Below are positions 18,834 through 22,927 of a DNA stretch of 53,468 nt, piece after piece. The stretch's first letter is position 1. Each line of letters opens with the position of its first letter. The notes beneath the pieces were generated by a model. The model ran no database searches and had not been told where the DNA came from. It saw only the letters and a program-made list of their open reading frames with translations. The translations under genes and the position numbers were made by a program. Source of the DNA: Devosia sp. (GTDB lineage: Bacteria; Pseudomonadota; Alphaproteobacteria; Rhizobiales; Devosiaceae); assembly GCA_036568845.1 (NCBI GenBank), contig DATCRS010000558.1, positions 1 to 53,468 on the forward strand, read 5' to 3'.

Positions 18834-19982
18834 ATGTTGAATTCGCTTGATATCCCCAAGCGCCCCGAAGACACGCGCGTCGTCGTCGCGATGTCCGGCG
18901 GCGTCGACAGCTCGGTGGTGGCCGGACTCCTCGCCCGCGAAGGCTACGACGTCGTGGGCGTCACCCTGCAGCTTTACGATCACGGCGAGGCCACGCACCG
19001 CAAGGGCGCCTGCTGCGCCGGGCAGGTCATTCACGATGCGCGTCGCGTCGCCGCCAAGCTCGGCATCCCGCATTACGTTCTCGACTACGAAGAGCGCTTC
19101 AAGAATGCCGTGATGGAACCCTTCGCCAATGCCTATCGGCAGGGCGAAACGCCAGTGCCCTGCATCGCCTGCAACCAGTCGGTGAAGTTCGTCGACCTGA
19201 TGGAGGTCGCGCGGGATCTCGGGGCCGACGTCCTCGCCACCGGCCACTATGTGCAGAGCAAACTCGTCGACGGTCGGCGGCGGCTGTTCCGCCCGGTCGA
19301 TGCCTCACGCGACCAGAGCTACTTCCTTTTCGCCACCACGCAGGCCCAGCTCGACTTCCTGCGCTTCCCGCTCGGCGGCATGACCAAGTCGGAGGTCCGT
19401 GCGCTTGCCGCCGAGTTCGGGCTCGAGATCGCGGCCAAGCCCGATAGCCAGGACATCTGCTTCGTGCCGCAGGGCAAGTACGCCGACGTCATCCGCAAGA
19501 TGCATCCCGAGGCACACGCGGGCGGCGAGATCGTCCACCTCGACGGCCGCGTCCTCGGCCGGCACGATGGCATCGTCAATTTCACCGTCGGCCAGCGCAA
19601 GGGCATCGGCATCGCCACCGGCGAGCCGCTCTATGTGGTCAAGCTCGAGCACAAGACTGGTCGCGTCGTCGTCGGCCCGCGCGAGGCGCTGATGACGCGC
19701 ACCGTCCGGCTGCGTGACGTCAACTGGCTGGGTGAGGGCGCACTGGCTCATTTGGCCGCCGGAAACGGCTATCCGGTCGAGATCAAGGTCCGTTCCACGC
19801 GTCCACCCTGTTCAGGTGTCGTTCATCTCAGTGGCGAAAGCGTGTTCGTGACCCTCTCGGACGGCGAATACGGCATCTCTTCGGGCCAGGCCTGCGTGTT
19901 CTACGCCGACGAATCCGAGACCACCGAAGTGCTCGGCGGCGGCTTTATTGCCGAGGCTGTTCCGCAGGCGTTGGTGGCGTAG
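18834..19982 (+). CDS. mnmA: tRNA 2-thiouridine(34) synthase MnmA
   Basis: [50 protein letters not shown]; start could also be 18825. Confidence 0.96.
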
Positions 19983-20124
19983 TGGCGGCTTCCTTGAGCT
20001 GCTGGTAGTTACTGAGGCCACCCATAAGTGCCGACAGCGTATAGACAATCAGCAGCACGCCCATGACGAGGATCACGATCCGTCCGGGTGTGAGCTTCCA
20101 CGGGCTCAGCGGTTTTTCTTCCAT
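19945..20124 (-). CDS. 59-aa single-pass membrane protein (not in the ORF track)
   Basis: [59 protein letters not shown]; one clear TM helix; overlaps the mnmA 3' end by 38 bp. Confidence 0.6.
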
Positions 20125-20160
20125 GCGCTCGCTCTACCACAAAAAACCCTGAATCACCGC

Positions 20161-20190
20161 CCCAAGCATATCCCCGCGGGCGGCGTCTCA
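20161..20190 (+). promoter_or_regulatory. Putative autoregulatory ECF promoter
   Basis: CCCAAG-N17-CGTCTCA preceded by an A-tract; the same motif recurs at 20940-20969. Confidence 0.6.
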
Positions 20191-20198
20191 TCGATAAG

Positions 20199-20798
20199 AT
20201 GTTTCGCGAAATGACAGAGGGGTCGGAATTTTCGGGGGCCATGGCCGCGTTCCTTGACCAATCGGCACTGGCGGACGAGCCGGCGCCCGACTCGAGCCTG
20301 GCGCTGCTGGCGGCGCGCGGGGACCGCGCCGCATTCGGCCAACTCATTGAGCGGCATTACGAATACATCTTCCGCATCGCCTGCAAATGGAGCGGCAAGC
20401 GGTCCGATGCCGAGGACATTGCGCAGGACGTCTGCATCAAGCTCGCCACTGCCATACGAAGTTTTGACGGCCGTGCCGCCTTTACCAGCTGGCTCTACAA
20501 GGTCACCCTCAATGCCGTCCGCGACATGCAGCGGGCACGCTCGCGCCGCGGCAAAAATATCGACCGCTATGCCGTGGTGGCGCCGGACGAGGAATTGCCG
20601 GACCAGGAAGACTCGACCGCAATGAAGGAAATCTGGGCGGCGGTCCGGCAGTTGCCCGAGCAGCAGCGCGACGCCGTGCTCCTCGTCTATGCCGAGGACA
20701 TGAGCCATGCCCAGGCGGGGGAGATCATGGGGTGCGAGGAAACCACGGTTTCCTGGCACATACACGAAGCGAAAAAGACCCTGCGAGGTCTGCTATGA
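20199..20798 (+). CDS. ECF (sigma70 group 4) RNA polymerase sigma factor
   Basis: Region 2 DAEDIAQDV..F..WLYKV, region 4 LPEQQRDAVLLVY..MSHAQAGEIMG..TVSW; start 20199 (possibly leaderless) or 20241. Confidence 0.92.
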   Translation: MFREMTEGSEFSGAMAAFLDQSALADEPAPDSSLALLAARGDRAAFGQLIERHYEYIFRIACKWSGKRSDAEDIAQDVCIKLATAIRSFDGRAAFTSWLYKVTLNAVRDMQRARSRRGKNIDRYAVVAPDEELPDQEDSTAMKEIWAAVRQLPEQQRDAVLLVYAEDMSHAQAGEIMGCEETTVSWHIHEAKKTLRGLL

Positions 20799-22927
20799 GC
20801 CACGACGACTTCGACAACAAGCTCAGCGGGCTCAGCAACGCCCGGCTGCCCGCCCCCTCGGAGGCGGCCCGTCGTCGCGCGCTCGATGCCGCCATGCTGG
20901 CCTTCGACGAGGCCGAGGCGAAAAAAACTTCCGAGGTCGCCCAAGGAGAAGGTTTCTGGTCGCGTCTCAGGTCCATCGTTCCAAACAGGAGTTGGATCAT
21001 GGACACGCGTATCACCCTCGGGCTGGGCACTGCCGCAGTGGCGCTTCTGCTACTGCCGCTGGGGTACCAGCTCTATACGTCCACCGCGATCACGCCGCTC
21101 AGCACCGGTCCCGTCGTCGATCACCCCGTCGAGGCCGAAACGCGGCAGCAAGAGCCCGCTCCCGGGCTCGAAGCCCAGCAGAACATCGCCACCGAACAGC
21201 GCCTGCGCGATGAGGCCGATGGCTGGGTCGTGACGCTCACCGAAGACGTCAACGGTACCAACACACAGCAGCCACCCGTTGTGACAATGGAGCTGCCCAA
21301 GCCGGCAGCCGCACCGCAGCAGCAAGCCGATCTCGACAGGGAGGCCGGCGTAATGGCGCAGAAGTCAGTCGCCCCTAGCTCGACCGCGATCGGCCGCACG
21401 ACCGCCGTTCCGATGGCCGCCGAGTCCGCAGCTGGCGCGATGGCCCCCGGCGACGCGCTGGTCATGCCGGCACCCGAGCCGATGATGGTGGCGCCGACCG
21501 AGCCATCCGGCGATGTCTTCACCGAGTTCAAGGAAAGCCCGGTGAAGATCGTCAAGGAAGAGCCGGTCTCGACCTTCTCGATCGACGTCGACACCGCCTC
21601 CTATTCTTATGTCCGGCGCGCCCTCACCGAGGGTTGGATGCCCGAGCCCGATGCCGTGCGCATCGAGGAGATGATCAACTACTTCAACTACGACTATGCC
21701 GGTCCGGACTCTGCCGAGACGCCGTTCAAGGCAACGATGCAGATCTATCCGACGCCTTGGAACCCTAAGACGCAACTCCTTCAGATCGGCATCAAGGGCT
21801 ACGTGCCGCCGGTGACGGAAGACAAGGCGTCCAACCTCGTCTTCCTGCTCGACACCTCGGGCTCGATGGACGAGCCGGACAAGCTGCCGCTCCTCAAACG
21901 CGCCTTCGGCCTGCTCGTCGACCAACTTGGCGCCAACGACACAGTGTCGATCGTCGCCTATGCGGGTTCCGCCGGCGTCGTGCTCGAACCCACCAAGGCG
22001 AGCGACAAGGCTAAGATCCTCACCGCACTCGAGAACCTCGCGGCTGGCGGTTCCACGGCCGGCGCCGAGGGGATCGAACTCGCCTATCGCCTCGCTGAAC
22101 AGAATAAGGTCGCAGGCGGCATCAACCGCGTGATCCTCGCGACGGACGGCGACTTCAATGTCGGCATCGACGATCCCGAGGATTTGAAGACCTTCATCAA
22201 GGGCAAGCGCGACGAGGGCGTGTTCCTCTCGGTGCTCGGCTTCGGCCAGGGCAACCTTGGCGACGACACGATGCAGGCGCTGGCGCAGAACGGCAACGGC
22301 AACGCCAGCTACATCGACAGCTTCAAGGAAGCCCAGAAAGTGCTGGTCCAGGAGATGGGCGGCACGCTCGAAACCATCGCCAAGGACGTGAAGATCCAGG
22401 TCGAATTCAATCCAGCCGCCGTCGCTGAATACCGCCTGGTCGGCTACGAGACCCGTGCGCTCAACCGCGAGGACTTCAACAACGATAAGGTCGATGCCGG
22501 CGACATCGGCGCCGGCCACACAGTGACCGCGATCTATGAGATCACGCCGGTCGGCTCCGGCGCCGAGCTCAACGACCCGCTGCGTTATGGCACCGATACG
22601 CCGGCAGCCGCGGTGCTGCCGAGCGACGAGATCGGGTTCTTGAAGATGCGCTACAAGGCGCCAGAGGGGGCGACTTCGCAGCTCATCGAAACTCCGATTA
22701 CGAAGTCGCTTGCAGTCTCGACCATCGAGCAGGCCTCCGACGACGCTCGCTGGGCGGCCGCCGTTGCCGCTTTCGGGCAGAAGCTCAAGGGCTCGAACTA
22801 CGGCGAAATGAGCTACGCGGACATCAAGGCCCTCGCCCAGGGTGCGCGTGGCACCGACGAGAACGGCTATCGCGCCGAGTTCATGCAGCTCATCAACTCG
22901 GCCGAGATCATCGACACGCGCAATTAG
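20795..22927 (+). CDS. Membrane-anchored vWA/DUF3520 (YfbK-like) protein with a putative N-terminal anti-sigma segment
   Basis: ATGA overlap with the sigma stop; ~70-aa soluble N-terminus, TM LGLGTAAVALLLLPLGYQLY, FSIDVDTASY, MIDAS DTSGS, ILATDGDFNVG, EYRLVGYE.R. Confidence 0.9.
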   Translation: MSHDDFDNKLSGLSNARLPAPSEAARRRALDAAMLAFDEAEAKKTSEVAQGEGFWSRLRSIVPNRSWIMDTRITLGLGTAAVALLLLPLGYQLYTSTAITPLSTGPVVDHPVEAETRQQEPAPGLEAQQNIATEQRLRDEADGWVVTLTEDVNGTNTQQPPVVTMELPKPAAAPQQQADLDREAGVMAQKSVAPSSTAIGRTTAVPMAAESAAGAMAPGDALVMPAPEPMMVAPTEPSGDVFTEFKESPVKIVKEEPVSTFSIDVDTASYSYVRRALTEGWMPEPDAVRIEEMINYFNYDYAGPDSAETPFKATMQIYPTPWNPKTQLLQIGIKGYVPPVTEDKASNLVFLLDTSGSMDEPDKLPLLKRAFGLLVDQLGANDTVSIVAYAGSAGVVLEPTKASDKAKILTALENLAAGGSTAGAEGIELAYRLAEQNKVAGGINRVILATDGDFNVGIDDPEDLKTFIKGKRDEGVFLSVLGFGQGNLGDDTMQALAQNGNGNASYIDSFKEAQKVLVQEMGGTLETIAKDVKIQVEFNPAAVAEYRLVGYETRALNREDFNNDKVDAGDIGAGHTVTAIYEITPVGSGAELNDPLRYGTDTPAAAVLPSDEIGFLKMRYKAPEGATSQLIETPITKSLAVSTIEQASDDARWAAAVAAFGQKLKGSNYGEMSYADIKALAQGARGTDENGYRAEFMQLINSAEIIDTRN
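20940..21001 (+). promoter_or_regulatory. Intragenic ECF-like promoter with SD and in-frame ATG
   Basis: CCCAAG-N17-CGTCTCA at 20940-20969, A-tract 20921-20927, SD AGGAG 20987-20991, ATG 20999 (codon 69 of the vWA gene). Confidence 0.6.

Follow-up and report, generated by a model that had tools for sequence, protein, structure and literature searches.

Why should the promoter of a sigma factor gene be repeated inside the coding sequence of the gene for its putative inhibitor? The question is raised by a gene pair in a stretch of DNA from Devosia sp. (GenBank assembly GCA_036568845.1, contig DATCRS010000558.1, forward strand), all 53,468 nucleotides (nt) of which were analysed and are referred to here as the window. 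The first gene (20199..20798, + strand) encodes an extracytoplasmic function (ECF) sigma factor of the ECF289 type, 199 amino acids (aa) long from its first ATG, and the second (20795..22927, +) a putative anti-sigma factor of 710 aa in its full-length form. A preliminary description had placed the motif CCCAAG-N17-CGTCTCA at 20161-20190, ahead of the sigma gene, and again at 20940-20969, within the second gene; both copies were found, with no third in the window. The overall interpretation offered there is supported by our sequence comparisons: quite probably, one gene gives two proteins, a 710-aa form that would hold the sigma factor and a sigma-induced, headless form of 642 aa that would be its core output.

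The outer promoter, P1 (20161..20190, +), has the −35 element CCCAAGCA at 20161-20168 and the −10 element CGTCTCA at 20184-20190, and the inner promoter, P2 (20940..20969, +; codons 49-59), has CCCAAGGA at 20940-20947 and CGTCTCA at 20963-20969. Two matches in the window were reached in none of 100 shuffles, and in the whole genome (3.79 Mb, 88.6% complete) the exact 13-base motif with a 17-nt spacer occurred only as these two copies. A weight matrix was trained exclusively on 107 sites lying upstream of orthologous sigma genes (117 loci), and with it the downstream gene was scanned over its first 300 nt. The consensus CCCAAGGA / CGTCTxA was satisfied at these 107 sites, the version at P1 of the window being CCCAAGCA / CGTCTCA; P1 scored 21.6 and P2, with the matrix trained on upstream sites alone, 23.2. 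The A-tract that had been noticed ahead of each copy is present at 20141..20146 (+) for P1, where it resembles an upstream (UP) element and agrees with the A-rich −19..−13 region of the 107 upstream sites and with the ECF289 up-element, and at 20921..20927 (+) for P2, where it is read as Lys-Lys and shows a bias to AAA at the Lys codon. The start sites, earlier expected near 20197 and 20977, are now predicted at about 20196 (P1) and 20975 (P2), where the upstream consensus has its pyrimidine-purine step (+34/+35). In the sigma gene the first ATG comes only 3 nt past the predicted P1 start, so that the mRNA may be near-leaderless, or the sigma gene shorter (alternative starts Met5 and Met15; 20199-20243).

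On sequence criteria, the pair is a member of ECF289. This group, part of the former ECF20, is described in the available text of the classification of Casas-Pastor et al. (2021; PMC7826278) as a sigma factor followed at position +1 by a vWA (von Willebrand factor A)-DUF3520 protein with one transmembrane (TM) segment and a putative anti-sigma role; its supplement, in the part available, gives the predicted promoter CCCAAGGA / CGTCTxA, an up-element AAAATTT and predicted self-regulation, and likewise treats the anti-sigma role as putative. The locus has the two-domain sigma factor (only sigma2 and sigma4 were found with Pfam, as Sigma70_r2/r4_2, and NCBIfam), the +1 vWA-DUF3520 protein with one TM segment, the promoter and the proteobacterial distribution. 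The closest named relatives are Devosia, and Azotobacter carries the pair as well. The 710-aa protein (Pfam vWF_A, VWA and YfbK_C, the last being DUF3520) consists of a 68-residue head, a single hydrophobic segment at about residues 73-91 (21011..21067, +; the strongest 19-residue window starts at residue 73, mean 1.85), a low-complexity linker and a vWF_A-VWA-YfbK_C module. The translational coupling proposed for the two genes is borne out by a stop and a start that overlap as ATGA (20795-20798).

If P2 were an accident of this genome, it should not recur. From 140 loci, 132 had a sigma hit and 117 were non-redundant; L025 and L026 (frameshifted, L026 having the motif) and L044, L054 and L058 (no vWA hit) were left out before counting, as was L148, from an unpublished genome, and L150 was left out of the tree described below. 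Among 112 non-redundant loci at the level of the order, the P2 scores were bimodal, 93 loci scoring at least 11.5 and 19 at most −4.8, while the best score elsewhere in each vWA gene did not exceed 10.1. In other alphaproteobacterial groups, with 35-49% sigma identity, P2 was found in 13/14 loci, the remaining one being weak, and 20 further YfbK_C regions included 14 with a related sigma gene directly upstream, all of which had P2; other classes of the phylum account for six of these 14. The total was 120/140 non-redundant loci, from Devosia to other classes, in a single reading frame throughout. An additional batch, overlapping the earlier genera in part and including one locus already counted, gave P2 in 13/14 loci with an intact vWA gene, the miss scoring 8.0 in the correct frame, and in records of Rhizobium etli CFN42, R. 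leguminosarum and Azotobacter chroococcum P1 and P2 were the top two matches in 6.4 kb. In R. etli CFN42 the pair is RHE_RS23540/RHE_RS23545 on p42c (NC_007764.1), with the counterparts of the two predicted starts near positions 148543 and 149263. Kin not being independent, most weight belongs to the distant loci and to a group of 24 dissimilar ones.

The codons under P2 separate a requirement for DNA from one for protein. In the 93 P2 loci, Gln was encoded by CAA in 84/84 cases (15.6% in the rest of the same genes), Lys by AAA in 9/9 (16.1%), Gly by GGA in 86/91 (4.9%) and Arg by CGT in 92/92 (9.8%). The wobble C preceding the motif codons was present in 93/93 loci beneath at least eight different residues, and the final A of the −10 element, a first codon base, in 91/93 beneath many residues, while the five spacer codons between the two elements were free in sequence and constant in number. 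A protein alignment of 125 rows made with no selection for the motif gave the same picture, with CAA 96 versus CAG 2, GGA 97 versus 7 other Gly codons, CGT 107 versus 16 other Arg codons, and ATG in 104; for comparison, Arg in residues 1-40 was CGT in 42/343. The 27 distant P2 loci had CAA in 26 and AAA in one (background 42%) and CGT in 27/27 (background 17%), and the Lys codon of the A-tract at −16 was AAA in 67 and AAG in 5 of the 120 sites (AAA background 16%). Judged by these patterns, the inner copy is the product of neither chance nor coding constraint. The first bases of the −35 element in P1 and P2 were CCC/CCC in 57 loci, CCA/CCA in 6, TCC/TCC in 4, GCC/GCC in 1 and mixed in 17; this covariation is suggestive only and may track base composition.

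A promoter at this position could make a protein only if translation can start behind it. The Shine-Dalgarno (SD) sequence AGGAG (20987..20991, +) and the in-frame ATG at 20999 (Met69), ahead of the hydrophobic segment, are as the preliminary description had them, and the conservation of motif, SD and Met beyond coding constraint, which that description had proposed as a test, was found across the loci. The inner A-tract, P2, SD and ATG all fall within codons 43-69. An in-frame ATG lay 53-65 nt after the start of the −35 element in 93/93 P2 loci; under a loose rule it had an SD-like word before it in 90/93, under a strict rule in 65/93. By the strict rule, 27/27 distant loci had an SD of at least 4 bases together with an ATG ahead of the hydrophobic segment, as against 59/1395 other internal ATGs, a comparison with a mild bias in that the best ATG within a given range was picked. 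Over all loci the distance from −35 to ATG ranged from 53 to 119 nt, the ATG always being just ahead of the hydrophobic segment, and the bases of the SD were translated as Trp, Gly or Arg depending on the lineage. We infer from the sequence that the gene probably yields a second protein, of 642 aa.

In the operon mRNA the inner start is likely to be buried in a hairpin, a feature absent from the preliminary description and less firm than the promoter. The predicted hairpin (20957..21014, +) pairs 20957-20975 with 20993-21014, with an inner stem of 20979-20982 and the SD bases 20988-20991; in it, the −10 element and whatever follows as far as the predicted start are paired with SD, ATG and first codons. 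The folding energy of 20955-21015 was −21.5 kcal/mol (z −2.9). Most of the 5′ arm is missing from a P2 transcript starting at about 20975, and an RNA of equal length from that position folded more weakly than its shuffles (z +1.9). In 118/120 loci the cost of opening the start region was higher in the long RNA than in the short one by at least 2 kcal/mol (means 14.4 versus 6.9). Because longer RNAs always pair more, three controls were made. With the upstream sequence shuffled, the native start was the more buried in 90/93 and 21/27 loci. When arms were exchanged among the 24 dissimilar loci, the energy of opening −16..+6 was 5.8 kcal/mol for the short RNA, 13.6 for the long and 8.4 for the long RNA with the arm of another lineage, the long RNA lying above the swap mean in 23/24 loci (12/24 for P1 under the same test); the pairing energy was −10.1 for native and −5.1 for exchanged arms, native being better than the mean in 23/24, as compared with 12/24 and 11/24 at two control positions. 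Finally, synonymous randomisation that kept the protein and the −10 core gave 13.5 for native and 9.4 for randomised sequences, native being higher in 23/24. The arm paired at least 4 bases within −16..+6 of the ATG in 22/24 of the dissimilar loci.

What the short form would lack is the head, for which binding to the sigma factor had been proposed over all 68 residues. Binding is indeed predicted, but by residues 6-41 (20810..20917, +) rather than by the whole segment: in the complex model only these residues are in contact, with both sigma domains (2 and 4), whereas codons 42-68, which carry the DNA signals, lie outside the interface. Alignment and codon counts show a stretch, at about residues 10-40, that is conserved at the protein level (L13, A29, A36 and F37 at 90% or more) with mixed synonymous codons. 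The complex scored 0.74 and the best control 0.13 (alignments of 101 rows each); the mark applied to this score was reached by 116/157 solved pairs and 2/215 mismatched pairs. Runs agreed in at least 90% of contacts, and the partner had a pLDDT (predicted local distance difference test) of at least 73. In Pfam, head residues 1-66 matched no family in more than 2/101 members at E 0.05, and a sequence search of the PDB with the head gave no match (best E 0.3).

The short form (20999..22927, +) would comprise a short basic N-region, a hydrophobic anchor, the linker and the YfbK-type module. In 120 loci its hydrophobic stretch begins at residue 3-15 (at residue 5 in 78) and the basic N-region is present in 118, and a crude test found a lipobox in 2/120 and a strict AxA in 0/120, which makes an uncleaved membrane anchor likely. 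Stand-alone YfbK proteins have, by eye, signal-like N-termini resembling that of the short form. The module (21512..22906, +) comprises vWF_A (240-329), VWA (347-516) and YfbK_C/DUF3520 (523-704), as given by Pfam, modelling and Foldseek. Its metal ion-dependent adhesion site (MIDAS; D353-S355-S357, T421, D451) was invariant in 81/81 aligned sequences, DxSxS being present in 117/117 sequences long enough. Modelled from an alignment, the periplasmic module had a pLDDT of 86 and a predicted template modelling score (pTM) of 0.87 (pLDDT 37 for the single-sequence fold); Foldseek related it to ArnA/ArnB, a Catenulispora vWA protein and inter-alpha-inhibitor heavy chain 1 (TM-scores 0.4-0.5), and a PDB sequence search with the module returned distant vWA matches only.

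The motif scan of the genome, which the preliminary description had suggested, showed a very small regulon, with P2 ranked third. Five sites scored at least 18. Besides P1 and P2, they were a site ahead of a SIMPL (DUF541) gene, another ahead of a gene for an exported 508-aa protein with no Pfam match and one unexplained; shuffled matrices gave 0-5 sites at 18 or above and 0-3 at 21 or above, and the real matrix 4 at 21 or above. In three genomes (G028, G031 and G548) P1 and P2 were the only pattern matches. Among 20 regions around promoter sites in Devosia-level genomes, five sites precede SIMPL and most others precede products with signal-like N-termini, which points to an envelope response. 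Likely further ECF289 targets in Devosia, at G000:C275:4986-5015 and G000:C76:10090-10119 and at L209, L211, L215, L217, L218, L220 and L225, encode SIMPL/DUF541 and, with no match in Pfam, an exported protein some 460-510 aa long. Genome G003 (L225), 98% complete, had three promoter matches, one of them before SIMPL, and no vWA gene was found in it with the query used.

Mapped on a tree of 122 sigma factors (a quick IQ-TREE run, midpoint-rooted), the presence of P2 required 3 changes as compared with a shuffled mean of 18.1, and P2 occurred on both sides of the midpoint root. In genus g41, three loci have P1 and neither an intact vWA gene nor P2, and a fourth genome (G060) has both; a single event may account for this. 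No separate intact YfbK was found in the three vWA-less genomes (81-90% complete) with the query used, so that the prediction of a split gene is unsupported there. In eight of the 19 P2-less loci (L009, L011, L012, L013, L016, L073, L080 and L081) a further promoter-like site lies upstream of P1, at the start of the small divergent gene described below and 130-370 nt ahead of the sigma match, frequently with an inverted-repeat element after it; for P2-bearing loci none was listed. Candidate anti-sigma genes with neither the vWA core nor P2 were seen at L228 (G190), L229 (G112) and L227 (G153) and in P0031, the flanking YfbK parts being kept, weakly, in two of the first three, and a partial metagenomic protein, P0021, joins the head and TM segment of the Devosia clade that has lost P2 to a prolyl oligopeptidase domain and could be an assembly chimera.

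In the circuit that we propose, the 710-aa form would hold the sigma factor through residues 6-41 until an envelope signal, probably perceived at the MIDAS-bearing periplasmic module, frees it. One-TM anti-sigma factors elsewhere release their sigma factors through regulated proteolysis, and by analogy the same may happen here. Freed sigma factor at P1 would renew sigma and inhibitor together, and at P2 would give membrane-anchored YfbK in excess with no inhibitor added. Transcription from about 20975 would drop the 5′ arm of the hairpin and leave the inner start free, so that the short form would depend on P2. The short form is most likely the core output of the sigma factor; by binding the ligand of the sensor it would both do its job and draw down the signal.

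Several observations weigh against this reading. The counts contain a disproportionate share of Devosia and Mesorhizobium. There is no ATG at the inner start in R. etli CFN42 (L264, position 1959) or in L235; by inspection the start there is GTG, with ATG at the equivalent place in R. leguminosarum (L266). In a Devosia clade of at least 16 loci, P2, SD and Met were lost together while head, TM segment and vWA module were kept, and no second full-length copy was found in these genomes with the query used, so that the short form is dispensable. The sigma factor has many solved relatives, and the complex model may owe its pass to likeness to solved ECF/anti-sigma pairs. For the hairpin, RNAalifold found no consensus in 28 sequences, the pairing register shifting among lineages; of three registers counted, one was 80% paired with no covariation (201/500 shuffles), one showed some (4/500) and one none, and a narrower measure of accessibility (−13..+6 unpaired) hardly differed between native and swapped arms (0.44 versus 0.47).

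Among other explanations, the one that survives best, although we consider it unlikely, accepts both proteins and gives the short form no protective role: it would only modulate feedback, competing for the protease or oligomerising with the sensor. The TM segment and sensor are common to both forms, the short form is likely to be anchored, and Devosia has other secreted targets (SIMPL and others), all of which would suit such a decoy. However, as P2 is the only other site found in G028, G031 and G548, a pure decoy would leave the sigma factor there with no output, and YfbK also exists as stand-alone exported proteins. It is distinctly improbable that P2 is real and makes only an RNA, or acts through polymerase occupancy or read-through to downstream genes, with no second protein. 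The structured RNA element around the start site might be taken to favour this, but SD and in-frame ATG are kept at a variable distance, always before the hydrophobic segment, and are lost with the promoter, and the downstream sequence was dissimilar in 10 loci inspected. Still less probable is Met69 as the sole start, codons 1-68 being an untranslated or separate leader and the gene an ordinary yfbK under sigma control that lacks an anti-sigma head. A subgroup, ECF289s6, is listed in the available part of PMC7826278 with a truncated N-terminal anti-sigma domain, and residues 1-66 match no Pfam family; yet protein-level conservation with synonymous variation is seen at residues 10-40, the head remains coupled to the sigma stop, in frame with vWA, and persists where P2 is lost, and it is predicted to bind sigma. 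The s6 truncation may itself, at a guess, reflect start calls at the inner Met. That a conserved Gln-Gly-x5-Arg-Leu peptide gives rise to the motif as a by-product is strongly disfavoured: the motif always lies in one frame and encodes near-constant residues, but at wobble positions the bases that make rare codons are fixed, residues vary while bases stay (Q/K, L/P/Q/H/R, T/R/S/I/M/K/N), and the motif residues fall outside the predicted interface and are missing in the loss clades.

One feature of the surroundings may be added. A gene for a 59-aa, one-TM protein (19945-20124, −) is divergent from the sigma gene and overlaps the 3′ end of mnmA; homologues stand at the equivalent place in most Devosia loci inspected, with only a sub-threshold match to DUF6479.

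Extra promoters for anti-sigma genes have precedents. In Escherichia coli, rseAP3 is an additional sigma-dependent promoter that transcribes only the anti-sigma gene and gives more of the complete inhibitor. The sigH-rshA pair of Corynebacterium glutamicum, according to the available text of PMC3489674, likewise has an extra sigma-dependent promoter for the anti-sigma gene alone, by which the complete inhibitor is increased and the response shut off; P2, in contrast, begins past the sigma-binding codons and could not do so. Closer in form is sigma-R/sigma-R′ of Streptomyces coelicolor (PMC4921905, available part), in which one gene with two promoters gives two N-terminal isoforms, one of them solely sigma-dependent; there the sigma factor gains 55 residues from an upstream promoter, whereas here the anti-sigma factor would lose its head to an intragenic one. 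The exported vWA-DUF3520 proteins found beside an ECF sigma gene in ECF35 and ECF255 (PMC7826278 supplement, available part) and as E. coli YfbK (PMC12204202, available part) speak for the two-protein circuit: in ECF35 and ECF255 the vWA-DUF3520 protein and the anti-sigma factor are separate genes, and ECF289 would combine both roles in one frame. The preliminary description knew of no account of the arrangement, and this stands in part. The gene layout, promoter consensus, A-rich up-element and predicted autoregulation are shared with ECF289 as catalogued in PMC7826278, so that the pair and its promoter consensus were already known by prediction, but the available text of that source mentions no inner promoter, SD, second start or hairpin. 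In the literature searched we found neither a description of the nested promoter nor an experimental study of an ECF289 member, although a mention in supplements not seen or subscription papers is possible; PMC3188799 and PMC9546586 proved irrelevant in the parts available. What appears to be new, within the literature searched, is the nested promoter, the second start and the hairpin.

We lean, with less assurance than for the two proteins themselves, towards the view that this is an ancient two-in-one device of ECF289 across the Alphaproteobacteria and other classes, in which about 80 nt would serve at once as linker, UP element, promoter, start-occluding hairpin and ribosome site, the hairpin would make the effector strictly dependent on freed sigma factor, and YfbK would be an envelope-stress effector. 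The device may be a relic of fusion, the anti-sigma head having been joined to a yfbK target gene, once separate, by way of its promoter and leader. Regulon predictions confined to the 300 bp ahead of annotated genes (PMC7776599, available part) would be blind to a target of the P2 type, though in some genomes it is the sole non-operon target. If the circuit is as proposed, it would be a new design for ECF systems, an output with no added inhibitor drawn from the inhibitor's own gene and gated by both a promoter and an RNA structure. Two questions become directly testable in R. etli CFN42, Mesorhizobium or Azotobacter: do vWA-DUF3520 proteins truly act as anti-sigma factors, and what is the function of YfbK? 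If the two-in-one view is right, the uncharacterised YfbK family would gain a testable role as an envelope-stress effector.

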